Source: an uncultured virus (IMG/VR IMGVR_UViG_3300042274_000333)
Lineage: Duplodnaviria > Heunggongvirae > Uroviricota > Caudoviricetes
Virus record (IMG/VR): IMGVR_UViG_3300042274_000333
Strand: one strand, 5' to 3'
Length of the DNA stretch: 20,000 nt
A program made the translations under genes and the position numbers. The notes beneath the pieces are model-generated. The model worked only from the letters and a program-made list of their open reading frames with translations. It made no database searches and was not told where the DNA came from. The stretch's first letter is position 1; each line of letters opens with the position of its first letter. This document shows, in pieces, positions 1,850 to 20,000 of the stretch.

Positions 1850-2266
1850 ATGGAAAAAACACAATGCTTAAAATGCGGGGAATGGAAGAGCGTAGAAGAT
1901 TTTTCAAAAAATAAAAGAAAAAGAGGCTATCACAATTGGTGTAAATCTTGTGTTAAAGAATATGACCACGCTAGATATAAAGAAAATAAAGAAAAAATAT
2001 CTAAACAAAAAAAAGACCGCAGAAAGTCAATAAAAGAATGGTTTTTTGACTATAAAAGTTTTTTAAAATGTGAGATTTGTGGAGAAAGCCATATAGCAAC
2101 ATTAGACTTTCATCATTTGGATAAAACTTCAAAAGATTTTAATGTTAGTAATGCAGCTAAGCAAGGGTTTAGCAAAAGAAGAATTCTTGAAGAAACGAAT
2201 AAATGCATAATTCTGTGTGCAAATTGCCATAGAAAATTGCATTATGAAGAAAACAACTCTCAGTAG
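1850..2266 (+). CDS. HNH endonuclease (putative homing type) with N-terminal CxxC zinc-binding domain
   Basis: CLKC...WCKSC, CEICG, LDFHH, LCANCHRKLH; paralogous to 3874..4296. Confidence 0.88.
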   Translation: MEKTQCLKCGEWKSVEDFSKNKRKRGYHNWCKSCVKEYDHARYKENKEKISKQKKDRRKSIKEWFFDYKSFLKCEICGESHIATLDFHHLDKTSKDFNVSNAAKQGFSKRRILEETNKCIILCANCHRKLHYEENNSQ

Positions 2267-2330
2267 GTCAGTGGTAGACCGCCTGTTTTGGGAACAGGAG
2301 ATTTCGCAGGTTCGAATCCTGTCTGGGAGA
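2257..2330 (+). tRNA. tRNA-Pro(TGG), overlapping the end of the HNH ORF by 10 nt
   Basis: CCTGT-TTTGGGA-ACAGG; acceptor CTCTCAG/CTGGGAG. Confidence 0.92.
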
Positions 2331-2397
2331 TATAAGTTAGCAAACTATTGACGTATCAAGTCGGTAGAAATTCTAGAATTTTTGCTAACTTTTCAAT

Positions 2398-2503: not shown

Positions 2504-3766
2504 ATGAAAGAAATTGACATCGTAAAAAAACTACAAGAAAATGGATTTGAAGCCTACTTCGTAGGTGGATGCGTAAGAGATATGATTTTAAGGAAACCTC
2601 CAAAAGATATTGACGTAGTGACTTCCGCTACTCCTGAAGAGGTTTCAAAAATTTTTGAAACCTCTTTTTTTGTGGGAGAAAGTTTCGGCATATCTCTCGT
2701 AAGCGGGGTTGAGGTAGCTACTTTTAGAACTGAAAGTTCTTATGACGGTAGAAAGCCTAAAAGTGTTCATTTTAGTTCTTCTCTTGAAGAAGACTCTAAC
2801 AGAAGGGACTTTACTTTTAATGCATTATATTTTGACCCGATTAAAGATAAGATTATAGACCTTCATTATGGAATTGAAGATTTAGAAACTGGAACTGTAA
2901 GGTTTATTGGAAAAGCAGAAGATAGAATTCTAGAAGACCATTTAAGAATTCTACGTGCTATAAGATTTGCTTCTGTTTACGGATTTACTCTTGATAAAGA
3001 GGCTGTTTCTGCCATTAAAGAAAACAAACATTTACTTCATAGCATTAGTGCAGAAAGAATAACGGCAGAGATAAAGAAAACAGGAAATAAATTCCATAAA
3101 TTTGTAGAATTATTGTATGACTTACATGTTATAGATGAAATTTTTCCGTATGCTTCTGCTTTGAAAAATGTTCCACAGGATGCTGTTTGGCACCCAGAGG
3201 GAGATACATGGATTCATACTTTGAAGGTTATCAAAAACCTACAGACTGATGATTTTGTATTGAACTTGGCTGGACTTTTTCATGACTTTGGAAAGTTAAC
3301 TACCACTAAAAATGAAGATGGGAAAATAACTTCTAAAGGTCATGAAGCTGATTCTGTTATGCTTGCTCTTCCTATATTAAAAATGCTTAAAGTTTCCAAC
3401 AAGGAAGCAGAAGATATTCTATGGTTAGTTGAAAATCATATGAAAGTAAAGCATTTTCTTGAAATGAAAAAAAGTAAGAGAATAGCTTTAGCAAAAGACG
3501 AAAGAGCAGTAAAACTTGCAGAACTTTCTGTTGCAGACAGCATGACTGAAAAAGCATTAGAGAAGAACACTGAAATAAAAGATGCCATACTGGAACTTCG
3601 TAAGGATGAAAAAACCTTTGTAGCTCCTTTGGTAACTGGAAATGATTTGATAGCTTTGGGAATGAAGCCTGGAAAAGTATTCAAAATAATACTTGATGAT
3701 TTATTTGATAAACAGATAAACAAAGGCATTACGTCAAAAGAAGAATTGTTAGAATATGTATTATAA
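2504..3766 (+). CDS. cca: class II tRNA nucleotidyltransferase (CCA-adding enzyme) with HD domain
   Basis: VGGCVRD, DIDV, RRDFTFNAL, EDHLRILRAIRFA, HPEG...FHDFGK, VTGNDLIALGMKPG. Confidence 0.93.
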   Translation: MKEIDIVKKLQENGFEAYFVGGCVRDMILRKPPKDIDVVTSATPEEVSKIFETSFFVGESFGISLVSGVEVATFRTESSYDGRKPKSVHFSSSLEEDSNRRDFTFNALYFDPIKDKIIDLHYGIEDLETGTVRFIGKAEDRILEDHLRILRAIRFASVYGFTLDKEAVSAIKENKHLLHSISAERITAEIKKTGNKFHKFVELLYDLHVIDEIFPYASALKNVPQDAVWHPEGDTWIHTLKVIKNLQTDDFVLNLAGLFHDFGKLTTTKNEDGKITSKGHEADSVMLALPILKMLKVSNKEAEDILWLVENHMKVKHFLEMKKSKRIALAKDERAVKLAELSVADSMTEKALEKNTEIKDAILELRKDEKTFVAPLVTGNDLIALGMKPGKVFKIILDDLFDKQINKGITSKEELLEYVL

Positions 3767-3774
3767 TTTATTAT

Positions 3775-3806
3775 TCATGTATAGTAATTGATTTTACTAT
3801 ACATGA
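3775..3806 (+). terminator. 13-bp hairpin after cca (terminator or processing site)
   Basis: TCATGTATAGTAA/TTACTATACATGA inverted repeat; no clear U tract. Confidence 0.45.
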
Positions 3807-3811
3807 TATAT

Positions 3812-3847
3812 GGGTGCTTGGTGTAATGGTAACATAAGAGTCTCCAA
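3812..3847 (+). pseudogene. 5' half of interrupted tRNA-Trp(CCA)
   Basis: GGGTGCT-TG-GTGT-AATGGTA-ACAT-A-AGAGT-CTCCAA, then the cloverleaf breaks off. Confidence 0.85.
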
Positions 3848-3873
3848 CTGTAAAGATATATTTGGAGACTAAC

Positions 3874-4296
3874 ATGGAAACAAAAATTTGTGGAACTTGT
3901 AAAAAAGAATTGCCATTAACTTATTTTAGGAAAAATATAAGAAGAAAAGATGGATACCAAACAGATTGTATTAAGTGCAGAAAAGAATACAATAAAAATC
4001 ATTATATAAAAAATAAAGAACTTTATAAAAAAAGAGCAAGTAAAAGAACAAAAGAATTAAGGCTTTGGTTCAAAGAATACAAAAAAGAATTAAAATGTGA
4101 GATTTGCGGAGATTGCAGATTTTATGTTTTAGAATTTCATCATAAAGATCCTACAGATAAAAAAGAGTCAGTTTCACAATTGATAAGACTTTCTTCTAAA
4201 AAATATTTATTAGAGGAAATAGATAAATGTTCTGTTTTGTGTTCTAATTGTCATAAAGAACTGCACTATCTTGAAAATAATGGTGGCGTATGTTAA
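3874..4296 (+). CDS. HNH endonuclease (putative homing type)
   Basis: CGTC...CIKC, CEICG, LEFHH, LCSNCHKELH; ATG 3874 preferred over TTG 3862 because GGAG lies at 3864-3867. Confidence 0.88.
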   Translation: METKICGTCKKELPLTYFRKNIRRKDGYQTDCIKCRKEYNKNHYIKNKELYKKRASKRTKELRLWFKEYKKELKCEICGDCRFYVLEFHHKDPTDKKESVSQLIRLSSKKYLLEEIDKCSVLCSNCHKELHYLENNGGVC

Positions 4297-4354
4297 ATGG
4301 TAAACTCTTTCGCTCCAAACGAAAGTTATGTGAGTTCAAATCTTACCGCCATCG
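4282..4354 (+). tRNA. tRNA-Trp(CCA), overlapping the end of the HNH ORF by 15 nt
   Basis: TTTCG-CTCCAAA-CGAAA; acceptor GGTGGCG/CGCCATC; G73. Confidence 0.9.
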
Positions 4355-4360
4355 AATAAA

Positions 4361-4388
4361 GTTAAGGGTTCGATCCCTTTAGCACTCG
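4361..4388 (+). pseudogene. 3' half (T arm and acceptor strand) of interrupted tRNA-Trp
   Basis: AAGGG-TTCGATC-CCTTT-AGCACTC-G; AGCACTC pairs with GGGTGCT at 3812. Confidence 0.85.
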
Positions 4389-4434
4389 TTACGTTTCTCA
4401 TGCTGAAAAGAATTTACTTCATAAGGGGAGAAAT

Positions 4435-4632
4435 ATGCTATTTCGTCATAATGAAAGAAAGAAAAGGATAGAAGTTTATAAACTTCTACCTTGTGGGGAA
4501 GAGCGTTTGGTAAAAGTGAAGGTAGGTGTTATTCGCTTATTTGATGAAGAGAAAGTATTTCTCCCAAGAGAAGGGTCAAGGCTTACGCCAGAGAATCTTA
4601 TTGATATTGCAGGGTATATTTTGGAAGAATAA
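4435..4632 (+). CDS. hypothetical protein
   Basis: 65-aa ORF, GGGGAG RBS. Confidence 0.7.
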   Translation: MLFRHNERKKRIEVYKLLPCGEERLVKVKVGVIRLFDEEKVFLPREGSRLTPENLIDIAGYILEE

Positions 4633-4635
4633 ATG

Positions 4636-4664
4636 TTGACAAGAAATTAAAAAAGGTATATACT
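4636..4664 (+). promoter_or_regulatory. sigma70-type promoter
   Basis: TTGACA-17-TATACT. Confidence 0.7.
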
Positions 4665-4687
4665 TTCTCTATAAAGAGGGAAGTAAA

Positions 4688-5137
4688 ATGGAATGGTTAG
4701 ATTTATTTGATAATAATGTAGAGAGAATCTGCATATCCCACACACGTTTGGGAACCTATTATGTTTCCCATCTTGTGATTTATGGTAGTGAAGTTTCTGC
4801 ATGGGGAATGTTAAGTGAGAATGAGCATATTTCTTTTGAAGAATATGTAGATGAATACGATTCTTATGAAGGCATACTTACTATGAAAGGAATGGCAGAA
4901 GAAGATTTTTTAGAGAGAACTGGAACCCCTGAAAATTATAGGTGTAGTTTTTGCTGTGCAGGAAAAGAGAAAAAGTATTTTGAATATACCACAGAAGAAG
5001 GCACAACACTAACAATGGCTATAAACGGAGATTGTTCTTGCCTTAATTTAAAAGAAACTTCAAAAGAAGGGATTTTAACAGAGGAATCTTGCCACCCTAT
5101 AAGGTTTTGTCCTATCTGTGGAGCAAAGTTAAGTTAA
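4688..5137 (+). CDS. hypothetical protein with zinc-ribbon-like cysteines
   Basis: CSFC...FCPICGAKL; GAGG RBS. Confidence 0.8.
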   Translation: MEWLDLFDNNVERICISHTRLGTYYVSHLVIYGSEVSAWGMLSENEHISFEEYVDEYDSYEGILTMKGMAEEDFLERTGTPENYRCSFCCAGKEKKYFEYTTEEGTTLTMAINGDCSCLNLKETSKEGILTEESCHPIRFCPICGAKLS

Positions 5138-5138
5138 T

Positions 5139-5212
5139 GCCTGTTTGGGCTAATGGATTAAGCCAGTAGTCTTCGAAACTATTAAGTGGGGGTTCGAATC
5201 CCTCAACAGGCG
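5139..5212 (+). tRNA. tRNA-Arg(TCG)
   Basis: GTAGT-CTTCGAA-ACTAT; acceptor GCCTGTT/AACAGGC. Confidence 0.92.
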
Positions 5213-5218
5213 AAGTAT

Positions 5219-5290
5219 GCCCGAATGGTGTAATGGATAACATGTGAGTTTCCTAAACTTTTGATAAAGGTTCAATTCCTTTTTCGGGTA
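5219..5290 (+). tRNA. tRNA-Arg(CCT)
   Basis: TGAGT-TTCCTAA-ACTTT; acceptor GCCCGAA/TTCGGGT. Confidence 0.88.
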
Positions 5291-5301
5291 AAGAGGTATT
5301 T

Positions 5302-11346: not shown

Positions 11347-11362
11347 AAAGTATAAGTTTTTT

Positions 11363-11914
11363 GGAATCATTAAATGTTATACCCAAGTGTATGAAGGCTA
11401 ACAACCTTGCTTGGACTGTCTTGAATGCTTTGGTGAGTTATCACGGATACGTGCTGACTTAACCAACTGTCAAAATCGTAAGATTAGATGGATAAACCTC
11501 AAAAAGGTTAAAGCAAGAGACAGGTGCTTGAAAATACGCTTGAAAAGGTCATTATGCTGACCCCTTCGCAATAGGCGATACGCTAGCCATCCAGTAAGTC
11601 GGGCTTGACAACTTTGATACTGCTGGAAAAGTCAAAAGCAAGAAGGGACTGTGGTTGAAACAGAGAAATCTGTGTATAAGTTGTGCATAATCGTAAAGTA
11701 GTCCAATTCCACAGGTTCTTAAACATATTGGATGATTAACAACCTGAAAGTCGGATGAAATTTGTGGGTAGCCATTCCCACCTTGAGTTCGGGAGAAATC
11801 CCCTTTAGAAATGCTAAGGAGTAATTACCCATAGCACAGGTTCTATCGTCAAGTAACCTAATATTCAAGAAGTATTGGATAGTAAGATGAAGGTCTATAA
11901 TTTTTATTGGTTCC
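11363..11914 (+). ncRNA. large (~550 nt) structured RNA, ROOL/GOLLD-class candidate
   Basis: No ORF in the track, own promoter, ends pair (GGAATCA/TGGTTCC) before a U tract, many internal hairpins, located in a tRNA array. Confidence 0.6.
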
Positions 11915-11922
11915 TTTTTTAT

Positions 11923-11994
11923 GGCGATGAAACCAAATGGCTAGGTGCAACTCTCATAAGGTTGATTTAGTTGGTTCAATTCCAACCATCGTCA
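11923..11994 (+). tRNA. tRNA-CAT (elongator Met or Ile2)
   Basis: CAACT-CTCATAA-GGTTG; acceptor GGCGATG/CATCGTC. Confidence 0.88.
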
Positions 11995-12521: not shown

Positions 12522-13127
12522 ATGATTAAAAACCTTCAAATAAATGAAGAAAGTTTCCCGTTTCAAATTTTAAGAAAAATGTATGATTGGGAAGGAAGGT
12601 TTTATCATACCATATATCATATTCAAGATATGATGCACTTTGCTTCAAAAGAACCTGATTTTACTGTAAATGTTGCTCTTGCAATATTATATCATGATGT
12701 TATAATCATTACTGGTAGCGAAGAAAATGAATTAGCATCTGCTGTGTTTTTCAAGTCTATGTGGGAAAGTGGTTTAGTTGATTCTTTGTTTATAAACAAA
12801 GAAGATTTAAACTCTGTTGATTCAGATAAAGTATTTGACTTAATCCTTGCTACAAAATATCATAGATTTACAGGAGACCCTGAAAACGATTTACTTATGA
12901 AGGCGGATTTGCTATGGTATTACAAAAATAACAACGGATACCAGTTAGTCAATGAAAATCTTATAAGAAAGGAATTTCAGAGCAAAAGCACTTATAGATA
13001 TTTAATCGGAAGAATAGAGTTTTTAGAAAATCTAAAAAAGACGCTTGAAGAGGATGGAGTTCTTGAAGATTATGTAAAAGGAATAGATGAAAATATTCTT
13101 TATCTTAAAGAGCGTTTTGAAAAATAA
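12522..13127 (+). CDS. HD-superfamily metal-dependent phosphohydrolase
   Basis: RFYHTIYHI, AILYHDVI, NELASA, ILATKYH, ADL, IRKEF...GRIEFL. Confidence 0.85.
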   Translation: MIKNLQINEESFPFQILRKMYDWEGRFYHTIYHIQDMMHFASKEPDFTVNVALAILYHDVIIITGSEENELASAVFFKSMWESGLVDSLFINKEDLNSVDSDKVFDLILATKYHRFTGDPENDLLMKADLLWYYKNNNGYQLVNENLIRKEFQSKSTYRYLIGRIEFLENLKKTLEEDGVLEDYVKGIDENILYLKERFEK

Positions 13128-13179
13128 AGAAGGATAAATGATATTGAACCACATGGTAAAATATAACCCAAAAAAATAG

Positions 13180-13208
13180 TTGCTAAAAAACTAAAAAAAT
13201 TGTATAAT
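13180..13208 (+). promoter_or_regulatory. sigma70-type promoter
   Basis: TTGCTA-17-TATAAT, same spacer as the promoter family. Confidence 0.8.
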
Positions 13209-13256
13209 AAGGTATAACGAAAAGAAGAAAAATAAAAAATGAACTAAAATTCATTA

Positions 13257-13354
13257 AAAGGAGGATAAGCCCATGAAGTAGTTTAGATTATCATTACCTC
13301 CATAAGTATAGTCGGTTTCTTAAGAAAAAACTGACAACAACATACTTATAGGAG
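13257..13354 (+). promoter_or_regulatory. leader mini-ORF with amber codon and RBS-sequestering hairpin (putative translational attenuator)
   Basis: AAAGGAGG; ATG AAG TAG TTT AGA TTA TCA TTA CCT CCA TAA (13273-13305); CTCC-ATAAGTAT pairs with ATACTTAT-A-GGAG (13342-13354). Confidence 0.75.
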
Positions 13355-13363
13355 AAAAGTAAA

Positions 13364-13714
13364 ATGGAAAAGATTTTTGATACGATTGAAGATTATAGAA
13401 ATGTGGTTTCTATGATGAAAGACTATTACAAAGAACTCTCTGCAAACATAAGAGAGGAAAAAGTAAAATACAAGAATTTACTCAGGGGAAGAGTATACCC
13501 TGACTATATGAATGTAAAATATCATCTTGATGATAACAGAAGAAATGCTAGGATTTTTAATGTAGTATATTCTATATTAAAAGGAAAATCGTATAAGCAG
13601 ATTGAACCCAAGATACGGGAGAAAAATGAGTTATACGGCGGTGAAATAAGAAAATTTTGTGAAAAATGGAATTTGCCTTCTGATCCTTTCGTAAAGGAGG
13701 TAAATAATGCTTAA
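13364..13714 (+). CDS. hypothetical protein translationally coupled to pth2
   Basis: 116 aa, AGGAG RBS, overlaps the pth2 start. Confidence 0.85.
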   Translation: MEKIFDTIEDYRNVVSMMKDYYKELSANIREEKVKYKNLLRGRVYPDYMNVKYHLDDNRRNARIFNVVYSILKGKSYKQIEPKIREKNELYGGEIRKFCEKWNLPSDPFVKEVNNA

Positions 13715-14090
13715 ACAGTATTTTTTGGTAAGGAAAGACTTGGGAATGTCAAAAGGGAGGATTGCTTCTCAAGTGGCGCACAGCGCTATTATGTGTCTTT
13801 TATCAAGTGGAGAGTGGAACGACAAAACAGTAACCTTCTCCCACTTACCGGATGCTATTCTTAATGATTTAAAGAAAGGATAGCCATTTACAAAAGTAGT
13901 TCTTTCAGCAAACTCGGAAACTGATTTTTATAATGTAGTAGAAAGTGTTAAGAAAACATCATTACCGTTTTATGTAATGATAGACAACGGATTCTATGAC
14001 AGCAATGGCATAGAAAAGGAAGAAGCAACTTGCTTGGCAATAGGTCCTTGCGAAGGGCTTCGGGAACTTGAAAGGTTTAGACTTTTGTGA
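13707..14090 (+). CDS. pth2: peptidyl-tRNA hydrolase Pth2 with in-frame TAG at codon 59 (13881-13883)
   Basis: MLKQYFLVRKDLGMSKGRIASQVAHSA...KKG*PFTKVVL...MIDNG...TCLAIGP...FRLL; AAGGAGG RBS; missed by the ORF track. Confidence 0.88.
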
Positions 14091-14095
14091 TTTTT

Positions 14096-14135
14096 GACTG
14101 GGAGGGTGCCAAACATCTTCCCAGTCCTTTTTTGA
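14096..14135 (+). terminator. intrinsic terminator after pth2
   Basis: GACTGGGAGGGTG/CATCTTCCCAGTC hairpin followed by a T tract. Confidence 0.7.
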
Positions 14136-14195
14136 CTTTGCCCCACGAAAGTGGGATGACGGTTTCGCTGTGCCAGCCTATGCAAAACAGTGGGT

Positions 14196-14408
14196 AGAGA
14201 AGTGGTGAAAAATACGGGAGTTATGTTGTCGGTCGCTGCAGAGGCGGTGACTTTATTCATAGCTCCAGTTGGCAGACACCCATATCTGTCGCCAGCTAGG
14301 CGCTGGAGAAGACGTAGAGCAAAATCAGAGAGTTAAGTGTACATAATACTCTCTTTCGTGCACGATAAGAGTCAGGCATGAATGTAGGTTCAAATCCTAC
14401 CTTCTCTA
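14196..14408 (+). ncRNA. tRNA-like RNA with large insertions (213 nt)
   Basis: Acceptor AGAGAAG/CTTCTCT-A, T arm GTAGG-TTCAAAT-CCTAC, D arm TGGTGAA...GGCAGACAC split by hairpin GGAGTTATG/CATAGCTCC. Confidence 0.7.
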
Positions 14409-14438
14409 AAAAGAATATTATGTAAAGAGGTTCGTTTT

Positions 14439-14711
14439 ATGAAAGTAGAAGAAGTATTAAGTTCTTTTAAACAATATTTTAGAAAAAATACTGTTCGTTT
14501 CAGAGAAAATCAAGAAGTAACTGCCTCTATTGGAAGGTTGTTAATTGACTTTAACAAGGAAAGGATGCTAATTATAGATGATAATTCTTTATCTTCTATA
14601 AAATATGAAGATATAGAAAGTATTGCTTTCTATGCTGGAGACGGATGGGATTATCCTAACGATATTAAAATAATTATTGACAAAGACAATTATATAAAAA
14701 TACATGTATAA
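14439..14711 (+). CDS. hypothetical protein
   Basis: 90 aa, GAGG RBS. Confidence 0.75.
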   Translation: MKVEEVLSSFKQYFRKNTVRFRENQEVTASIGRLLIDFNKERMLIIDDNSLSSIKYEDIESIAFYAGDGWDYPNDIKIIIDKDNYIKIHV

Positions 14712-14717
14712 TAGAAT

Positions 14718-14788
14718 GGGTTTGTGGTGTAACGGTAGCACAGAAAACTCTAAATTTTCTGGTGAGGGTTCAATTCCCTTCTTTCCCA
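14718..14788 (+). tRNA. amber suppressor tRNA (anticodon CTA)
   Basis: GAAAA-CTCTAAA-TTTTC; D arm GTGT-AACGGTA-GCAC; T arm GAGGG-TTCAATT-CCCTT; acceptor GGGTTTG/CTTTCCC has three U-U mismatches. Confidence 0.85.
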
Positions 14789-14800
14789 AAGGATATAAAA

Positions 14801-16381
14801 ATGAAAAGTACAAAAGAGCAAATTTTAGATTTACTTAATTTACTAGGAGAAGGTCAGCCTCAAAAAACTGGAAACTTTATAGAATATGAATTTAACCCTT
14901 CTCACATTGTTATTGAGCATGATAATGGAGCCAGAGAAGTACGTGAAGACGTTGGAATCACTACTTTTATTGTAGGTGTTAATAATGACCACCTTTCTTT
15001 TGAAACGTACTATGGGGTCAATAATAGACTTAAATATATCCCTGATAATACTTTTTCTATCCGTAGAATAAAGAAGAAATTTTTTATTAATAATTCAGAA
15101 AGAGGAAAATATCATGATGATTACATACTTGTAGAATTAAAAAGAGATTTTTTTGCTAAAGGTTCAAATTTAGGGTATTATATTCCAATAGAAAGGGAGA
15201 ATGACAACGTGTATGATTATGAAGAAAATAGTTTAGAAGGTAATTTTAAAAAAGCAAGAATGAAACTAATTCATTTTAATGATTTTAAAGAAGAAAGTTT
15301 TAGCAACAAAAAAAACATTGAATTTTCTTTAGATGAAAGCACGCCTTTTAAAGCATCTATGTATGAAGAAAGTTTAAGAGAACATGAATATTTGACAGCA
15401 AATGAATATATAAAGTCAGAATATTCTATATATGAAATCTTTAAAAGCTATAGTGATAAAGCTCTTATAAGCATATATTCTTCTGTTCCTGGAAATGTAA
15501 GAATAAAGATTTCAAGAGATGGTGTAGCATTATTTGATGTATATGGAAGATGTATAAATTTAGAAGTAAATGATGAATATGTAAATTTTCTGATAATTGA
15601 AAATAGAACAAATAAAAACTTCATTTGTAGTTTTTTACTACAGCCAGAGGAAATGCCTCCTTGGATTAAAGATCTTACAGAAGAAAAAGTAGATTCAGAG
15701 CAGATACTTATTAATAATGCTTTTAAGGAATTTAGAGAAGAAATAGATAAAGAAATTATTTCACAGTTATATAATAAAAAGGAGAATAAAATGAACAAAG
15801 CACTCAACGCATTTATGCCATCGTCTATCCCAAGTGGAACGATTGCACTTACTATGAATGGAACTATTGCAGTAAAAGCAGTAGATGAATCGTATGTTTC
15901 TTTTGATAAGGAAACTAAAACACTGGTAAATCACATGAATCTTGTATTTGGGCAAGATAAACTACACGAATTTAGTGCAGTTATGCCAGTAAACAAGGAA
16001 CAAGTAAAGATTGGAGACATCCTCCATACTGGACTTGGATGGGCTTTTGTTTCTGATATTGTTTCTGGAGAAGATGGTATTACCTCTTTGAAGGTAGTAA
16101 ATATTAACACCGGAAATGAAGAAAGCCAAGTAGACACAAAGAACGCATTTATCAATGCACCTACTGTAAAGAAACTTATCACTTTCTTCGGTGATTCTTT
16201 CTCTGGTGGAATGGATAATCCTAATGGCTTTAACCCTTTGATGTTCCTTATGATGGGAGACAGCAAGGGCGATAAGAACGATATGTTCAAGATGATGATG
16301 TTTTCTCAAATGATGGGAAATGGAAATCAAAGTGGAAATGGATTTAACCCACTTATGATGATGATGTTCATGGATAAGTAA
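14801..16381 (+). CDS. hypothetical protein with probable internal start at 15791 (Met-rich C-terminal product)
   Basis: ATG 14801 lies after the tRNA; AAGGAG-ATG at 15791 is in frame; NPLMFLMM/NPLMMMM repeats. Confidence 0.75.
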   Translation: MKSTKEQILDLLNLLGEGQPQKTGNFIEYEFNPSHIVIEHDNGAREVREDVGITTFIVGVNNDHLSFETYYGVNNRLKYIPDNTFSIRRIKKKFFINNSERGKYHDDYILVELKRDFFAKGSNLGYYIPIERENDNVYDYEENSLEGNFKKARMKLIHFNDFKEESFSNKKNIEFSLDESTPFKASMYEESLREHEYLTANEYIKSEYSIYEIFKSYSDKALISIYSSVPGNVRIKISRDGVALFDVYGRCINLEVNDEYVNFLIIENRTNKNFICSFLLQPEEMPPWIKDLTEEKVDSEQILINNAFKEFREEIDKEIISQLYNKKENKMNKALNAFMPSSIPSGTIALTMNGTIAVKAVDESYVSFDKETKTLVNHMNLVFGQDKLHEFSAVMPVNKEQVKIGDILHTGLGWAFVSDIVSGEDGITSLKVVNINTGNEESQVDTKNAFINAPTVKKLITFFGDSFSGGMDNPNGFNPLMFLMMGDSKGDKNDMFKMMMFSQMMGNGNQSGNGFNPLMMMMFMDK

Positions 16382-16395
16382 GGTAAAGATAATAC

Positions 16396-16424
16396 TTGAC
16401 AAAAAACTAAAAAAATTGTATAAT
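16396..16424 (+). promoter_or_regulatory. consensus sigma70 promoter
   Basis: TTGACA-17-TATAAT. Confidence 0.85.
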
Positions 16425-16438
16425 AAAGTATAATCAAA

Positions 16439-16493
16439 TGGATGCTAACAGCAATTTAAAAGTACTTTTTTGGTGTAAAGAAAAAGCATCCAG
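16439..16493 (+). ncRNA. ACAGCAA element 5 (minimal)
   Basis: TGGATGCT-AACAGCAA...AGCATCCA-G. Confidence 0.7.
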
Positions 16494-16497
16494 TTTT

Positions 16498-16580
16498 GGG
16501 CGATTAAGCAATGGTAGCGTTAGTGTAGTAAAACCCACAGTGGAGCCACTAAAATAAGGGTTCAATTCCCTTATCGTCCA
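16498..16580 (+). ncRNA. tRNA-like RNA with 21-nt anticodon loop and Ala-type acceptor
   Basis: GGGCGAT/ATCGTCC-A (G3:U70), stem TAGTG/CACTA, T arm AAGGG-TTCAATT-CCCTT. Confidence 0.7.
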
Positions 16581-16582
16581 AC

Positions 16583-16678
16583 GGTGTCGTAGAGAAATTG
16601 GCAAACTCCGCAGACGACCAAGAGAGTGCAGGCATCGTCTGCAATCCTGCTATGTAGGTTCGAATCCTACCGACACCA
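16583..16678 (+). ncRNA. tRNA-like RNA with 8-bp anticodon stem and 17-nt loop
   Basis: GGTGTCG/CGACACC-A, GCAGACGA/TCGTCTGC, T arm GTAGG-TTCGAAT-CCTAC. Confidence 0.72.
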
Positions 16679-16681
16679 CTT

Positions 16682-16730
16682 TGGAAACTAACAGCAAACA
16701 ACTTGAATGAGTAGCTTTAAAAGTTTCCAG
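16682..16730 (+). ncRNA. ACAGCAA element 6 (minimal)
   Basis: TGGAAACT-AACAGCAA...AGTTTCCA-G. Confidence 0.7.
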
Positions 16731-16982
16731 TTTTAATTTTAACTTATGTAGATAAAAAACGTTAGCAACGAAAAAGCATCTACTAAAGTATTATATGCGC
16801 TTACCCCAGTAGCTCTGGTAAGTAGCGCTAGTGCTGGCAAAGACTGCGAATCTAGTCAGCGAGCAACAACAAAGGCTTTGTCTTCGCAGGACAAAAATGG
16901 CGTAACCTCAAGTGAGAGGGGGAATCGGGATAATAAAGCCTTCCGATGCAAGGCGTTGTAAATGTTGTTGTCTTTTTATTTT

Positions 16983-17053
16983 GGTCTATTCGTCTAATGG
17001 TAGGACACCTGGTTCTCAGCCAGAAAACATCGGTTCAATTCCGGTATAGACTA
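16983..17053 (+). tRNA. tRNA-Glu(CTC)
   Basis: CCTGG-TTCTCAG-CCAGA; acceptor GGTCTAT/ATAGACT. Confidence 0.9.
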
Positions 17054-17055
17054 TT

Positions 17056-17116
17056 TGGATACTTACAGCAATCTTAATAAGGATAAATTTGGTTCGATTC
17101 CAAGAAAAGTATCCAG
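17056..17116 (+). ncRNA. ACAGCAA element 7 (small hairpin plus T arm)
   Basis: TGGATACTT-ACAGCAA...TTGG-TTCGATT-CCAA...AAGTATCCA-G. Confidence 0.72.
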
Positions 17117-17123
17117 CATTCGT

Positions 17124-17197
17124 CGCAGGGTGGACTGGAGAGGCTCCAGCTCGGTCTCATAAGCCGAATCACGAGGGTTCGACTCCCTCCTCTGCTA
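17124..17197 (+). tRNA. initiator-type tRNA-Met(CAT)
   Basis: C1xU72 mismatch; TCGGT-CTCATAA-GCCGA. Confidence 0.88.
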
Positions 17198-17202
17198 TTA
17201 AT

Positions 17203-17354
17203 AATGAAGTGGCGGAAACAGACGCAAGGTAGAAAAAGGATAGAGCAAACTGTATTAACAGGGGCTATCCCAAATAACAGAATACACACAGCTAGCTTAA
17301 GTGTATCACTGTTAACCTAAATGCTCATGTAGGTATTAAACCCTACCTTCATTA
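17203..17354 (+). ncRNA. tRNA-like RNA with expanded anticodon domain (152 nt)
   Basis: AATGAAG/CTTCATT-A, D arm TGGCGGAAACAGACGC, T-like arm GTAGG-TATTAAAC-CCTAC. Confidence 0.65.
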
Positions 17355-17780
17355 TTATTTACTTCTTGGTAAGATAGAGGTAAGAGCCTTTACTCGGGAT
17401 GTCCCATAAATGTATTATTTATTTTGTGGGAATGTAAAGGTTGGCTTTTCTGTTGAGCCACATAATAAAATCAGCAGACCTTGTTTGGGGAAGCAAGGTT
17501 ACGGTGATGCCAATGGCACCAATCTTACTAAGGCTTCAAATCCTTGCCGTACAAAGTTTTGACACGCCTCTACCGTTTGAGCCAGTGCGTGTAGCAATCT
17601 TCTAAAACCTGAATAAAAGAAGATTTGTATTAGTAAAAACGGTTCAGGGATAGGAAACACTTACATCCAGCAGTAAGCGTTTAATACGTGTTTAAGGTAA
17701 AGCCTGAATATCCTTAAACCTCTAGGTAAATAGAATAGTTGAGATTGTTTTATTTTCCGCTGGTTCAGGCATCATTTCTT

Positions 17781-17853
17781 GGTGAATGTAGCATAATGGT
17801 AATGCACCAGGTTGTGGAGCTGGTAGATGCGAGTTCAAGTCTCGTCGTTCACC
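17781..17853 (+). tRNA. tRNA-His(GTG)
   Basis: G-1:C73; CCAGG-TTGTGGA-GCTGG; acceptor GTGAATG/CGTTCAC. Confidence 0.9.
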
Positions 17854-17856
17854 CTT

Positions 17857-17885
17857 AAGGCGCACTTTTTAAGTGCGCCTTTTTT
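17857..17885 (+). terminator. intrinsic terminator ending the tRNA block
   Basis: AGGCGCACTT/AAGTGCGCCT followed by a T tract. Confidence 0.85.
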
Positions 17886-17923
17886 GTTTGAAAAGATACA
17901 TATATACTTGTATAGGAGAAAAA

Positions 17924-18340
17924 ATGAAGAAATTTAAAGTGGCTAAAAAGCCATATTCAATTGAAGAAGATTGCCCTAACTGTAAAGCAAAAGGGTATAT
18001 AGAAGTAGAAGTATTTGACAAATATACACAAGAAAATAAAAAACTTGCTTATATTTGCCCACAATGTGAAAATACAAAAAAAGTAAAAAAAGAAGAAGGC
18101 GAACGATACGAAATTGAAGAAGTGGAAGTTGTAGGAAACTGCCATTTTGAAAGTGGGGAAAACTTTGTTATTGAAACTATTCCCGAAGGTGGTTCTTCAA
18201 ACACTATTTTTCTAGAAGATGGAACTGTTTATTCCCTGGAAAGATTTCCAGTAAATGTGTATTTTGATTCTGTTGAAGAAGCAGAAGAACATCAAAAAGA
18301 TTTAGAGCAAAAAGATGAAGAGATAGAAACAGATAAATAA
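17924..18340 (+). CDS. hypothetical zinc-finger protein
   Basis: CPNCKAKG...CPQC; AGGAG RBS before ATG 17924. Confidence 0.8.
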   Translation: MKKFKVAKKPYSIEEDCPNCKAKGYIEVEVFDKYTQENKKLAYICPQCENTKKVKKEEGERYEIEEVEVVGNCHFESGENFVIETIPEGGSSNTIFLEDGTVYSLERFPVNVYFDSVEEAEEHQKDLEQKDEEIETDK

Positions 18341-19029
18341 TGGCAGAAACATACATCACAGGTGATTTACATGGAAGGTTTCCATTATACAAAAAAAACA
18401 TACCAGAATTTACCAAAGATGATTTTCTTATTGTCTGCGGTGATTTTGGTTATATATTTTCAGAGAAAGAAACTTCTTTTGAAAAAGAAAGACTTGATGA
18501 ACTCCAAAGTAATACTAATGGATGTACCATTTGCTTTGTGGATGGAAACCATGAAAACTTTGATAGGCTTAAAAACCTTCAAATGGAATACCGATTTGAT
18601 AATGAAGTTGGTGTAGTAAGAGAGGGCATTTATCATTTACGAAGGGGAAGACCTTATGTGATAAATGGTGATACTATGCTTACTTTTGGAGGAGCTATCT
18701 CTACTGATAGAATGAGTAGAATTCCTAATATAAACTGGTGGTATGATGAAGTTCCTAATGATGATGAAATAATATTGGCAGAAAATGTTATTAAGAGTCA
18801 GCCGGTTGATTACATCATTACACACACCTGTCCGTTTTCCGTGCGGAGACGTATAAAGAGTAAGAAGTTATATAACCTTCATTGTCCTACTGAAGTTGCT
18901 CTTGAAGGGATTAAACGTCAAGTAAAAGGTGGTTTCAAAAAATGGTATTTCGGACATTTTCATGCCGATGAAATAGTTGACAATAATTTTAGATTATTGT
19001 ATAATGATATTATAAGAATCGGAGAATAA
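18340..19029 (+). CDS. calcineurin-like metallophosphoesterase
   Basis: GDLHG, GDFG, DGNHEN, ITHT, GHFH. Confidence 0.92.
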   Translation: MAETYITGDLHGRFPLYKKNIPEFTKDDFLIVCGDFGYIFSEKETSFEKERLDELQSNTNGCTICFVDGNHENFDRLKNLQMEYRFDNEVGVVREGIYHLRRGRPYVINGDTMLTFGGAISTDRMSRIPNINWWYDEVPNDDEIILAENVIKSQPVDYIITHTCPFSVRRRIKSKKLYNLHCPTEVALEGIKRQVKGGFKKWYFGHFHADEIVDNNFRLLYNDIIRIGE

Positions 19030-19030
19030 T

Positions 19031-19351
19031 ATGGAAATCACTTATGACGAAATTTACGCTATGTGTTGGAAGTCTTTAAAAAAATCTATGGATCGACTTA
19101 AAGAAAATCCGTTTACCTATGAAGTGTGGAAAACTGTTGACAGTGTAACTTCTTCTATTGAAAATACTATTTGGGATGAGGCTCAAAAAAAAGATGCAAA
19201 GATAGTAAAAACTAAAAAAGAGCATTTTGATGGAATGAGGTGGAGTTCTTTAATAAAATCGTTAGAGGAAGTAAAAGAAAAACGACCAGAAGAATTTGAA
19301 AAGCATGTTAAGTTCTTTTATAACTTAATGAAAAATCTTGAAAGTTTATAA
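19031..19351 (+). CDS. hypothetical protein
   Basis: 106 aa, GGAG RBS. Confidence 0.78.
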   Translation: MEITYDEIYAMCWKSLKKSMDRLKENPFTYEVWKTVDSVTSSIENTIWDEAQKKDAKIVKTKKEHFDGMRWSSLIKSLEEVKEKRPEEFEKHVKFFYNLMKNLESL

Positions 19352-19356
19352 ACAAC

Positions 19357-19425
19357 GGGGTATACTGGATTAGATTGGTATTCTATAGAATAGCCAAGAC
19401 GAGGGTTCAACTCCCTCATACTCCA
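19357..19425 (+). ncRNA. miniature tmRNA-like RNA (tRNA-like domain only)
   Basis: GGGGTAT-ACTGGATTAGA, short hairpin, GAC-GAGGG-TTCAACT-CCCTC-ATACTCC-A; G3:U70; unpaired D loop. Confidence 0.7.
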
Positions 19426-19441
19426 CAACAGGAGATTACAT

Positions 19442-19657
19442 ATGGCAAGTGAATTTGATGCTACTAATGCCGTTTGGGGAGAAGACCTCCAAGACATATT
19501 TTTTGAAGAGCCATATGTATATATGGATAATAGAATAACTCTCATGTTTGACGAAAAGGGAGAGGCATCTTTGTTGATGCCTATATATTATAATACACCT
19601 TTAGAAATTATACTTGAGAGCTTAAAAGAGATAGAAGAATATTTTTCTTCTTTATAG
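19442..19657 (+). CDS. hypothetical protein
   Basis: 71 aa, AGGAG RBS. Confidence 0.75.
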   Translation: MASEFDATNAVWGEDLQDIFFEEPYVYMDNRITLMFDEKGEASLLMPIYYNTPLEIILESLKEIEEYFSSL

Positions 19658-19681
19658 AGTGGTTTTTACCACTCTTTTTTT
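19656..19681 (+). terminator. intrinsic terminator
   Basis: AGAGTGGT/ACCACTCT followed by a T tract. Confidence 0.8.
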
Positions 19682-19693
19682 ATTAACAAAAAA

Positions 19694-19722
19694 TTGACAA
19701 AATTTTAAAAAAATAGTATAAT
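19694..19722 (+). promoter_or_regulatory. consensus sigma70 promoter
   Basis: TTGACA-17-TATAAT. Confidence 0.85.
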
Positions 19723-19748
19723 AGTGATATACGAAAAAGGAGAAAACT

Positions 19749-20000
19749 TTGATTGACAAGAGCAGTAATAGATATAAAAAATTTTTATTGTTAACTTCAT
19801 ATATTATTTCTGGAAGAAAAGCTTATTGTATTTTTGAGAGTGAGAAATATATTTTTGAAGGGAGAGCTATATCCTCTTGCAATAGCATCTTTCATAGTGG
19901 TTGTAATAATTGCCCTATGCGTATAAACTCTTTGGAAAAAATAAAGAAAATTATAATAAGAGAAAACACGATAAAAAGTAAAGACCATGGCTATATTATT
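19749..20000 (+). CDS. hypothetical protein, 5' part (runs off the window)
   Basis: AAGGAG RBS, TTG start, open frame MIDKSSNRYKKFLL... to the window end. Confidence 0.65.
   Translation, partial: MIDKSSNRYKKFLLLTSYIISGRKAYCIFESEKYIFEGRAISSCNSIFHSGCNNCPMRINSLEKIKKIIIRENTIKSKDHGYII

Follow-up and report, generated by a model that had tools for sequence, protein, structure and literature searches.

The window, by which we mean the whole stretch of 20,000 nucleotides that was analysed, carries a tRNA-Trp gene in two parts, between which lie an HNH endonuclease ORF and a second, intact tRNA-Trp (Table 1), all within the tRNA array of a large, uncultured phage. The older gene is readable to 3847/3849 on its 5' side, where the acceptor 5' strand, the D arm, the anticodon-stem 5' strand AGAGT and the loop CTCCAA are found, with the anticodon CCA at 3844-3846. 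Using the Rfam tRNA model, this part is matched as a 3'-truncated tRNA (model positions 1-38, 13.9 bits) and 4356-4387 as a 5'-truncated tRNA (model positions 40-71, 13.1 bits). All seven positions of the two acceptor strands (4381-4387 with 3812-3818) pair, one G-U among them, and the anticodon-stem 3' strand of the old tRNA-Trp is missing. The sequence-only reading of this DNA had described these fragments, a tRNA-Trp 5' half stopping just past CCA at 3847 and a T arm and acceptor strand resuming at 4361 and running to 4388, and both are present as stated. The intact tRNA-Trp was called at 4281-4355 by ARAGORN and at 4282-4354 by Rfam (49.3 bits, full length), and its nucleotides 1-15 (4282-4296) are at the same time the final four codons and stop of the HNH ORF, in agreement with the complete, divergent tRNA-Trp(CCA) sharing 15 nt with the HNH C-terminus that had been proposed. 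Identity between the new and the old tRNA-Trp is 52-58%, the background level between unrelated tRNAs of the window, so the new gene is not a local duplicate; its anticodon stem and variable loop are unlike those of the old one. All four elements (old 5' part, old 3' part, nuclease ORF and new tRNA) are thus confirmed as real, far above chance. The CCA end is encoded by neither tRNA-Trp copy. Directly upstream lies the gene for a CCA-adding enzyme (Pfam PolyA_pol head 1.1e-32, PolyA_pol_RNAbd 1.1e-11, HD 8.5e-06), for which we detected no relatives in the viral contig collection.

Table 1. Coordinates of the features at the split tRNA-Trp locus and of the neighbouring genes discussed in the text
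Feature	Position	Strand	Basis or detail
Paralogous HNH ORF, 138 aa, 44% identical	1850..2266	+	PHROG 2255, E 6.1e-35
CCA-adding enzyme gene, directly upstream (context)	2504..3766	+	Pfam
Old tRNA-Trp, 5' part	3812..3847	+	ends one base past the anticodon
Hairpin	3839..3870	+	RNA fold
Inserted cassette, 519 nt relative to the empty-site allele	3848..4366	+	X10 joint 3847->4367
HNH endonuclease ORF, 140 aa + TAA	3874..4296	+	PHROG 2255
New intact tRNA-Trp(CCA)	4282..4355	+	ARAGORN and Rfam
Right junction	4356..4366	+	AATAA (5 nt past the new tRNA), then diverged old variable loop and T-stem start
Old tRNA-Trp, 3' part	4367..4388	+	T stem, T loop TTCGATC, acceptor 3' strand AGCACTC, discriminator G

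The HNH ORF begins with ATG at 3874, ends with TAA at 4294-4296 and does not continue the reading frame of a host gene. Its match to PHROG 2255 'HNH endonuclease' at E 7e-34 bears out the proposal of an HNH ORF between the tRNA halves, and PHROG 3106 is matched at E 4.9e-23. The protein is laid out as an N-terminal CxxC...CxxC zinc ribbon, a helical linker and a C-terminal HNH domain. The conserved His...Asn...His catalytic motif is present (H89, H90, N125, H127 and H131) and is framed by two CxxC pairs (C75, C78, C123 and C126), all of these residues being invariant among 10 relatives. Two CxxC pairs make up a structural zinc site in many phage HNH enzymes. The AF2 model (mean pLDDT 91.4) places strands at 86-90 and 119-123, followed by a helix at 124-135, and the motif region aligns with the HNH domain of McrA (PDB 6ghc) at E 8e-4. 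Structure searches with the model yielded little: Foldseek against the PDB returned nothing at E<=0.001, VIA-align scores for Gme HNH (4h9d, Z 3.7, residues 59-140), GVE2 HNH (Z 2.9) and T5 SciA (Z 2.8) are all in the noise range, and the best score of a wide VIA-align comparison (Z 5.4) is confined to the zinc-ribbon part of Hpy99I. A Pfam scan at E<=0.1 found no HNH model; DUF7296 (0.028) and a family of the CXXC type (0.084) alone came up, and neither reaches the cut-off for acceptance. The absent Pfam HNH match is a limit of the Pfam profiles, and the motif and PHROG evidence stand. Membership of the GIY-YIG/SegB family was considered and rejected, as the named PHROG matches are all to HNH, endonuclease VII or zinc-ribbon families.

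The sequence-only reading had suggested looking among relatives for an uninterrupted allele. Comparing the window with contigs of other runs, we found one in a landfill run (X10), where a single contig (record 4, 612 nt, depth 6.27), the only one from which the empty allele is known, carries the whole old tRNA-Trp and joins 3847 to 4367 through 13 different letters. The flanks of this empty site are 94-99% identical to the window, with 7 differing letters in 111 on 3737-3847 and 6 in 488 on 4367-4854; on the right, similarity picks up again only from 4367. Coverage of 3848-4366 in X10 is low, but we leave this out of the argument and count the bridging contig. Within its 13 letters X10 contains ACTTT, which pairs with AGAGT and restores a 5-bp anticodon stem, and the modelled empty allele is called by ARAGORN as a tRNA-Trp(cca) of 73 nt. 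Because these letters restore the missing anticodon-stem strand, we conclude that the empty-site allele exists in nature, and hence that the 519-nt cassette is an insertion and not an intron. Measured against the empty allele, the cassette takes the place of 13 nt of the old tRNA, which run from position 38 through the 3' strand of the anticodon stem and the variable loop into the first part of the T stem. The inserted block holds the HNH ORF and the new tRNA-Trp together, that is, a co-transferred flanking marker. The X10 comparison thereby supports the earlier claim that the cassette wrecks the old gene and brings with it an intact tRNA of the same identity overlapping the ORF end. Searches of the viral contig collection with a pattern of the old halves and a gap, designed for the empty allele, gave 0 matches, and 0 matches were obtained with the exact old 5'-half pattern.

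The junctions of the filled form are bridged by contigs of other runs, X6 (3290-3898) and X7 (4274-4513), which are identical to the window, and X8 (3806-5300), which comes from a different study and has the filled allele with 46 differing letters over this span. The locus is thus polymorphic between close relatives, the insert being absent in X10 and present in X8, X6 and X7. At the right junction X8 has 4361 G>T, 4365 A>G and 4366 G>A, which gives it TAGA in common with the empty allele. X8 also has 468 letters in place of 3767-3805, and this second indel lies just 40 nt upstream.

In bacterial and plastid tRNA-Leu and tRNA-Ile, the anticodon loop can house a group I intron that carries a homing-endonuclease ORF. 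The insert resembles such introns in its anticodon-loop site, in the nuclease ORF inside it and in a helix running from the exon end to the start of the insert, but it differs in that the cassette has no ribozyme core, 13 exon nucleotides are replaced and function is restored by a second gene. Rfam on 3700-4500 at E<=10 gave the inner tRNA alone beyond chance-level rows, with no Intron_gpI or other ribozyme. ARAGORN with introns of up to 1500 nt found no spanning tRNA, and none of the direct joins tried across the insert yields a tRNA-Trp. A group I intron was rejected because there is no ribozyme core and the exons give no complete tRNA upon excision. The intron-less nature of the cassette, as originally proposed, is upheld by the same results together with the small amount of DNA outside the ORF and tRNA (26 + 11 nt, 37 nt in all). 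One might still suppose that the phage goes on producing the old tRNA-Trp, whether through splicing (autocatalytic or helped by proteins) or by putting two half-molecules together, given that the anticodon loop is the classic tRNA-intron position and that a hairpin linking the last 9 exon-side bases to the insert recalls a P1 helix in outline. However, the anticodon-stem 3' strand needed for such a product is absent, the join, ARAGORN and Rfam searches just described speak against it, as do the mere 37 nt available, and the hairpin lacks a junctional G-U pair and recurs without an upstream half in a related locus on another large contig (L016). We consider continued production of the old tRNA by any of these routes extremely improbable.

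When integrase-borne islands and prophages enter tRNA genes, the tRNA is made whole again by a second copy of its 3' part at the attachment site. The cassette is like them in being inserted in a tRNA gene with tRNA function preserved, but it brings a whole unrelated tRNA and has neither an integrase nor att repeats. An integrase-mediated tRNA island was rejected because the HNH ORF is the sole ORF of at least 60 aa on the + strand inside 3848-4366 and the new tRNA, at 52-58% identity, is not a duplicated segment.

The hairpin lies across the left boundary of the cassette. Its 5' arm AGTCTCCAA (3839-3847) is the old anticodon stem/loop, and its 3' arm TTGGAGACT (3862-3870) contains the Shine-Dalgarno GGAG (3864-3867) of the HNH ORF. 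The fold has a predicted energy of -14.6 kcal/mol (z -4.4), with 0 of 200 shuffles as good, and the homologous hairpin of L016 is at -19.9 kcal/mol (z -5.9). The consensus of the two comprises 11 pairs (a main stem of 8 and an inner stem of 3), none of them broken, and includes one compensatory UA<->CG change between these two sequences. A strict search with the hairpin motif gave 0 matches. A looser motif gave 31, and because 0 of the 31 occur with an HNH gene of the window's family and 2 of the 31 with any tRNA, we take these matches to be chance.

In L016 the HNH protein is 60% identical to that of the window, its stop lies inside a tRNA-Trp and the same hairpin is present, directly following a tRNA-Asp, with no split halves. 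The tRNA-Trp behind the L016 HNH gene is 47-58% identical to the new tRNA of the window and 62-64% identical to the old one; being no closer to the new than to the old, it indicates that nuclease and tRNA have not simply co-diverged as a unit. The window itself holds a paralogous HNH ORF (61/138 identities to the cassette HNH, BLASTP E 1e-34), whose final codons and TAG stop lie inside a tRNA-Pro(TGG) at 2257-2330. No split tRNA-Pro remnants were found around it by eye, by Rfam on 1585-1860 or by a join test filtered to remove chimeras of neighbouring intact tRNAs. Among 76 distinct ORFs of the HNH family, 22 end within a downstream tRNA and 13 more have a tRNA within 100 nt, which brings those with a tRNA overlapping the ORF end or at most 100 nt downstream to 35 of 76; other tRNAs are present in the locus for 16 of 76, and 25 of 76 have none. 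Split tRNA halves were detected by the filtered join test in just 1 of 60 testable family cassettes. The usual state in the family is an HNH gene directly 5' of a tRNA with no split halves, and the rarity of the split makes it look like the footprint of one imprecise repair event and not a regular mode of integration. The family is nearly absent from bacterial genomes (2 weak loci, with HNH fragments in MAGs). The phage GenBank collection yielded one weak match, to an uncultured phage of 636 kb. It spans 151 nt (72.5%) of the HNH C-terminus, and the HNH gene there follows a tRNA-Met, with no split.

That the hairpin arm copies an anticodon loop raises an alternative, in which the element is targeted by tRNA identity and regularly inserts at the anticodon loop of whichever tRNA gene matches its own anticodon, the spare tRNA compensating for the loss. 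In 5 of 30 cassettes the 80 nt preceding the ORF include a word of at least 6 nt that matches the anticodon loop of the cassette's own tRNA, where 2000 permutations give an expectation of 0.91 (P about 0.002). The five positives are not independent, however, since the window is related to L016 and among the Asn cassettes many are near-copies. The word forms the 5' arm of the hairpin in the window and L016 (both Trp) and in L105 (Arg). With words of 5 nt or more, in contrast, the excess is weak (10 versus 6.3 expected, P 0.055), no anticodon-loop word lies upstream of the paralogous HNH gene at tRNA-Pro, and the scarcity of split halves described above also counts against a regular habit. Moreover, any hairpin that covers a GGAG Shine-Dalgarno is necessarily complementary to the CUCC of the Trp anticodon loop. 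We judge such regular, identity-directed entry unlikely; it is equally unlikely that the 5' arm, as a copy of the anticodon loop, serves as a homology guide or as an operator of the nuclease, and we would give no better chance to the idea that halves are seldom seen because they are soon deleted. The existence of a class of three-part homing cassettes, in which an HNH nuclease is joined by a spare tRNA to make good the damage and by a leader hairpin copying the anticodon loop of the same tRNA species, is likewise doubtful, if slightly less so.

The closest functional parallel is SegB of phages T4 and T6, the free-standing homing endonuclease encoded in the T-even tRNA gene cluster. In T4 it cuts tRNA genes and drives the inheritance of itself and of neighbouring tRNA genes (PMC2330249). 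The same account describes a hairpin that occludes the Shine-Dalgarno of segB and a stop codon that is lost when the downstream tRNA-Arg matures (PMC2330249); the stop-inside-tRNA layout and the ribosome-binding-site hairpin of the window therefore have a published counterpart. In the T4 and T6 literature (PMC2330249, PMC13096335), the likeness extends to a nuclease gene within a phage tRNA array and co-carried tRNA genes, to a hairpin-occluded ORF start and an ORF end adjoining a tRNA whose maturation severs the stop codon (PMC2330249), and to homologues statistically associated with tRNAs of many isotypes. There are also differences. SegB is a GIY-YIG enzyme, whereas the nuclease of the window is an HNH protein with a zinc ribbon. 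The cassette sits inside the body of a tRNA and leaves two halves, whereas SegB, as described, swaps a region cleanly between homologous flanks. Finally, the SegB site is the T-psi-C motif at tRNA 3' ends, whereas the break suggested by the footprint in the window would be in the anticodon arm or variable loop. By analogy, then, the HNH cassette would work like SegB without belonging to the SegB family. Other endonuclease ORFs have been described in a phage tRNA gene cluster. It is proposed that processing of the primary tRNA transcript reduces their expression, and the passages that describe them mention no tRNA gene split by them. In a full-text search, with subscription journals outside its scope, we found no published description of a nuclease and spare-tRNA cassette that splits a tRNA gene.

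We consider it probable that a free-standing homing-endonuclease cassette, an analogue of SegB, took its neighbouring tRNA into the resident tRNA-Trp through imprecise repair of a break. We infer that the HNH nuclease would cleave DNA, preferring the old allele and sparing the new tRNA gene; the loss of 13 nt in the filled allele, and the way the new tRNA differs in its anticodon stem and variable loop, are compatible with such self-sparing cleavage. The donor would have been a phage with the nuclease gene directly 5' of its own tRNA-Trp, the arrangement seen in L016. Upon co-infection the nuclease would break the tRNA-Trp allele of a related phage lacking the homing endonuclease gene, in or next to the anticodon arm, and the break would be repaired from the donor without full flanking homology. 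The left junction would have formed in CTCCAA, a word common to the anticodon loop of the target and the 5' arm of the cassette hairpin, and the right junction would be an illegitimate join immediately past the donor tRNA, at the cost of about 9-13 nt of the target. The outcome seen at the locus is two dead tRNA halves flanking a nuclease gene and a spare tRNA. The insertion is tolerated because the phage retains a working tRNA-Trp, and from there the filled allele could spread through ordinary homing, its homology arms being the old halves and their flanks. One observation fits this account less well: the 3' arm of the hairpin pairs also with AGT of the old anticodon stem, which a plain CTCCAA-microhomology junction does not predict (chance 1 in 64). 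The cassette may have resided in the old tRNA lineage for longer, or the hairpin arm may have adapted.

The imprecision of the junctions, where 13 nt are replaced, no target-site duplication is seen and CTCCAA alone is shared, would also suit a rearrangement independent of the nuclease, by illegitimate recombination or template switching in a repeat-rich tRNA array, with the HNH gene as a passenger; the indel of X8 40 nt upstream implies that the spot is indel-prone. Yet the inserted block starts exactly at the translation-control hairpin, ends 5 nt past the tRNA and corresponds to the unit conserved in L016, the HNH family is tied to tRNA arrays, and for SegB it is established that the nuclease drives the exchange of tRNA regions (PMC2330249). 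We regard such a nuclease-independent origin as rather improbable. Under the preferred reading of repair after nuclease cleavage, and by analogy with T4 segB, the HNH gene would be read from the tRNA precursor transcript and its expression would be damped twice, by the Shine-Dalgarno hairpin and by RNase P cleavage at the 5' end of the new tRNA, which would remove the final four codons and the stop from the HNH message.

Phage tRNA arrays are increasingly viewed as a counter-defence against host systems that cleave tRNAs (PMC13096335, PMC11464382). The two brakes proposed for segB, a Shine-Dalgarno hairpin and a stop codon behind an RNase P site, recur here in an unrelated nuclease family, which points to convergence in how a nuclease gene copes with life in a tRNA operon. 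Only the anticodon loop is of necessity common to all tRNA genes of a given anticodon. If the cassette were keyed to this loop, through recombination microhomology or through a nuclease operator, the matching tRNA gene would be open to it in any phage, no matter how far diverged, and tRNA turnover in the arrays would be driven by it; if the anticodon-loop hairpin were the targeting device, this would be a new principle by which a homing element chooses its site. With filled and empty alleles both extant, the locus offers a directly testable substrate pair for an uncharacterised HNH family specific to tRNA arrays. The gain, loss and swapping of tRNAs in phage arrays are poorly understood, and this locus catches one mechanism in the act.

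Each element proposed in the sequence-only reading, namely the two halves of an old tRNA-Trp gene, an HNH ORF and a new tRNA-Trp overlapping the ORF, is present by sequence, ARAGORN, Rfam and PHROG. The 5' part of the old gene comes directly after the CCA-enzyme gene, has its CCA anticodon at 3844-3846 and, searched alone, gives a 3'-truncated match to the Rfam tRNA model (positions 1-38, 13.9 bits). The acceptor strand AGCACTC of the 3' part pairs at 7/7 positions with 3812-3818, and the window lacks the old gene's 3' anticodon-stem strand. The last four codons and stop of the HNH ORF are the first 15 nt of the new tRNA-Trp, and the insert outside ORF and tRNA amounts to only 26 nt (3848-3873) plus 11 nt (4356-4366).

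Features at the interrupted tRNA-Trp gene (window coordinates)
Feature	Position	Description
CCA-adding enzyme gene	2504-3766	Pfam PolyA_pol, 1.1e-32
Old tRNA-Trp, 5' part	3812-3847	acceptor strand GGGTGCT, D arm, anticodon-stem strand AGAGT, loop CTCCAA
HNH ORF	ATG 3874, TAA 4294-4296	140 codons; between the old tRNA-Trp parts
New tRNA-Trp(CCA)	4282-4355	intact; ARAGORN; Rfam 49.3 bits
Old tRNA-Trp, 3' part	4356-4387	Rfam tRNA model, 5'-truncated match (positions 40-71, 13.1 bits)

A search for public runs matching 3300-4900 gave 24 rows from 17 studies, 5 flagged as a possible source, and four runs were aligned to 3000-5300. An uninterrupted allele of the old tRNA-Trp was found in a landfill metagenome (X10), where a record of 612 nt (record 4, depth 6.27) skips the insert, matching 3737-3847 (7 other letters) and 4367-4854 (6 other letters) and joining 3847 to 4367 through 13 letters, AACTTTTGATAGA. 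These supply position 38, an ACTTT strand, a variable loop of short length and the first part of the T stem, and ACTTT forms four Watson-Crick pairs and one G-U with AGAGT of the 3812-3847 part. Mis-assembly could not have produced this complementary stem strand. The window flanks script-joined to these letters, our empty-allele model, were called as a 73-nt tRNA-Trp(cca) by ARAGORN. The filled form was found in a mixed-culture metagenome from a separate study (X8) as one 4029-nt contig covering 3806-5300 with 46 other letters, and identical pieces from two further runs bridge the left junction (X6, 3290-3898) and the right junction (X7, 4274-4513). Together, the empty allele in X10 and the filled form in X8, X6 and X7 establish that 3848-4366 is an insertion, replacing about 9-13 nt of a formerly whole tRNA-Trp gene, and that both alleles are in circulation. 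The right-hand remnant in X8 has changes at 4361, 4365 and 4366 that give it a TAGA in common with the empty allele, which places the right junction near 4357-4362. X8 also has a second indel directly beside the cassette, 468 other letters replacing 39 nt at 3767-3805, the stretch that separates the old tRNA-Trp half from the stop of the CCA-enzyme gene.

An interrupted tRNA gene could also be read as one carrying an intron. With introns of up to 1500 nt permitted, ARAGORN called no tRNA gene spanning the insert; the direct joins of the old parts that were tried gave no tRNA-Trp, only mis-registered 'Gly(tcc)' calls; and Rfam found no ribozyme in 3700-4500 at E<=10. Bases were lost from the target at insertion, without target-site duplication. 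The lack of a ribozyme, the 26 + 11 nt of spare sequence and the lost target bases rule out an intron, and these searches bear out the earlier description of the insert as intron-less. The divergence noted between the two tRNA-Trp genes also holds: the empty-allele model and the new gene share 52-58% identity and, since this is not above the level with unrelated window tRNAs (up to 72% to either gene), the two are not copies of one another. The tRNA-Trp of L016, the contig with the nearest HNH relative, is 62-64% identical to the old gene and 47-58% to the new. General tRNA features aside, the anticodon loop is the sole stretch that old and new genes must share, and the left junction falls exactly in it.

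The 140-aa ORF product had no Pfam HNH match at E<=0.1. It matches 13 PHROG families, of which the top two are HNH endonucleases (PHROG 2255, 'HNH endonuclease', E 7e-34), and the McrA HNH domain (6ghc) aligns with its C-terminal half (E 8e-4). Across 10 aligned relatives, residues C75, C78, H89, H90, C123, N125, C126, H127 and H131 do not vary. In the confident AlphaFold model (mean pLDDT 91.4), a zinc ribbon at the N terminus is followed by two long helices and then a strand-strand-helix; Foldseek with this model returned no row at E<=0.001, and the top VIA-align scores were to the zinc-ribbon part of Hpy99I (Z 5.4) and the Gme HNH nicking enzyme (Z 3.7). On motif and profile evidence the protein is filed as a predicted HNH nuclease.

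The nearest relative outside the window (60% identity) lies on L016, a 211-kb metagenome contig, where the HNH ORF (1501-1920) ends within a tRNA-Trp (1905-1978). Its leader is the same hairpin, with the Shine-Dalgarno (SD) sequence GGAG in the 3' arm and ATG 6 nt beyond. The window hairpin has a folding energy of -14.6 kcal/mol (z -4.4) and the L016 hairpin one of -19.9 kcal/mol (z -5.9), and the consensus keeps 11/11 pairs (8 in the main stem, 3 in the inner stem) with one compensatory UA-to-CG change. As judged from these comparisons, the cassette is a conserved unit. The L016 hairpin begins 1 nt past a tRNA-Asp, no tRNA-Trp halves were found around the cassette, and the arrangement looks like a 'donor' state. 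A second window ORF (1850-2266), 44% identical to the HNH protein, likewise ends inside a tRNA, tRNA-Pro (2257-2330). Its stop is a TAG within that gene; were TAG read through (modelled as TAG=Q), the frame would gain 23 codons, spanning all of tRNA-Pro before it met a TAA (window 1850-2335).

Our family set, from viral contigs, metagenome contigs and one GenBank phage, holds 108 HNH ORFs, 76 of them distinct. Among these 76, the ORF end lies inside a same-strand tRNA in 22, a tRNA starts <=100 nt downstream in 13 more, tRNAs occur only elsewhere in the locus in 16, and 25 have no tRNA in the locus, many such loci being short. Partner tRNAs include Trp, Phe, Pro, Asn, Arg, Lys, Ser, Gly, Thr, Gln, Leu and Asp, and the family, nearly absent from bacterial genomes (2 weak fragments), is tied to tRNA arrays. 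All left and right boundaries were also joined in silico, leaving out pieces overlapping called tRNAs; uncalled tRNA halves flank 1 of 60 testable cassettes, the window Trp cassette, in a test that requires nearly complete halves and that decayed halves escape. In contig L014 (1330-1650), and likewise in L015 and L035, the C-terminal part of a family HNH stands alone, beginning just past tRNA-Cys; at the corresponding position L008 has the full-length form, tRNA-Asn plus an HTH-HNH ORF, and the L014 remnant is a decaying nuclease gene copy in a tRNA array.

The window (20 kb, G+C 33.5%) is a phage-type tRNA array, with 23 tRNA genes called by ARAGORN, all on the + strand, 25 tRNA matches and one ROOL RNA in the Rfam scan, and small ORFs (a CCA-adding enzyme, methyltransferases and phosphoesterases among them) interspersed among the tRNAs. 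One virus record (G001) matches 13013-20000 at 100% identity and does not reach the cassette region. The ROOL RNA is full-length and inside the array (11359-11916; RF03087, 236 bits, E 6e-53), with a tRNA not called by ARAGORN directly 3' of it (11923-11994; Rfam 52.8 bits). The tRNA at 14717-14789 (anticodon CTA, 'Pyl' in ARAGORN) is a TAG-reading suppressor-type tRNA; similar tRNA(cta) genes occur in the related arrays L006 and L043, and this phage may decode TAG as sense in some of its genes. The stretch 1594-1675, flanked by tRNA-Lys and the second HNH gene, is tRNA-like (Rfam 22.3 bits vs a cut-off of 29), with a GCT anticodon, long variable region and odd T arm, and could be a tRNA-Ser that is atypical or in decay. 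Two adjoining tRNA-like genes at 16497-16679 (Rfam 33.6 and 43.8 bits), whose ARAGORN calls need short 'introns' (Ser gga, Gly acc), are probably long-variable-arm or atypical tRNAs, not intron-bearing.

The 5' arm of the window hairpin (AGTCTCCAA) is the anticodon stem and loop of the old tRNA-Trp, and the L016 5' arm also has CTCCAAA, though no tRNA half precedes it. Pairing of the hairpin's 3' arm extends to AGT of the old stem, which fits poorly with a junction made by microhomology alone. In 30 cassettes with a tRNA <=20 nt from the ORF end, we searched <=80 nt upstream of the ORF for a word from the cassette's own anticodon loop. Words of at least 6 nt occur in 5/30 (window, L016, L031 (Asn), L041 (Phe) and L105 (Arg)) against 0.91 expected on average with loops permuted among cassettes (P about 0.002), the cases being phylogenetically non-independent and GGAG necessarily complementary to the Trp anticodon loop; words of 5 nt or longer give a weak excess (10 vs 6.3 expected, P 0.055). 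The L105 word is again a hairpin 5' arm (-9.7 kcal/mol, z -3.5). In L041 (1090-1140), upstream of the HNH overlapping tRNA-Phe, the Phe anticodon-loop word GACTGAAAA occurs twice as a direct repeat, 5 nt apart with GGCA before, and is possibly what remains of the anticodon arm of a tRNA-Phe. The upstream words could be left over from earlier insertions, provide microhomology that directs the left junction, or form an operator similar to the nuclease's target.

It is already known that phage tRNA clusters harbour homing nucleases and that adjoining tRNAs can be co-converted. SegB of T4 targets tRNA genes by their T-psi-C motif and takes adjacent tRNA genes with it (PMC2330249), and a 2026 paper (PMC13096335) reports an association of SegB homologues with tRNAs of many isotypes. 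The portions of papers returned by our full-text literature search held no nuclease-plus-spare-tRNA block inside a same-identity tRNA gene with a known empty allele. Starting from the insertion polymorphism, cassette composition, unit conservation and tRNA-array tie of the family, which are directly established, we propose that the HNH nuclease would break tRNA-Trp alleles free of the homing-endonuclease gene near the anticodon arm, and that repair of the break would copy hairpin, ORF and tRNA from a donor, the left junction forming via the common CTCCAA and the right by an illegitimate join. HNH expression would be limited by SD occlusion and by an RNase P cut at 4281/4282, which would take off the last four HNH codons and the stop. 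The spare tRNA would make the hit tolerable, and the filled allele may now be spreading through ordinary homing.
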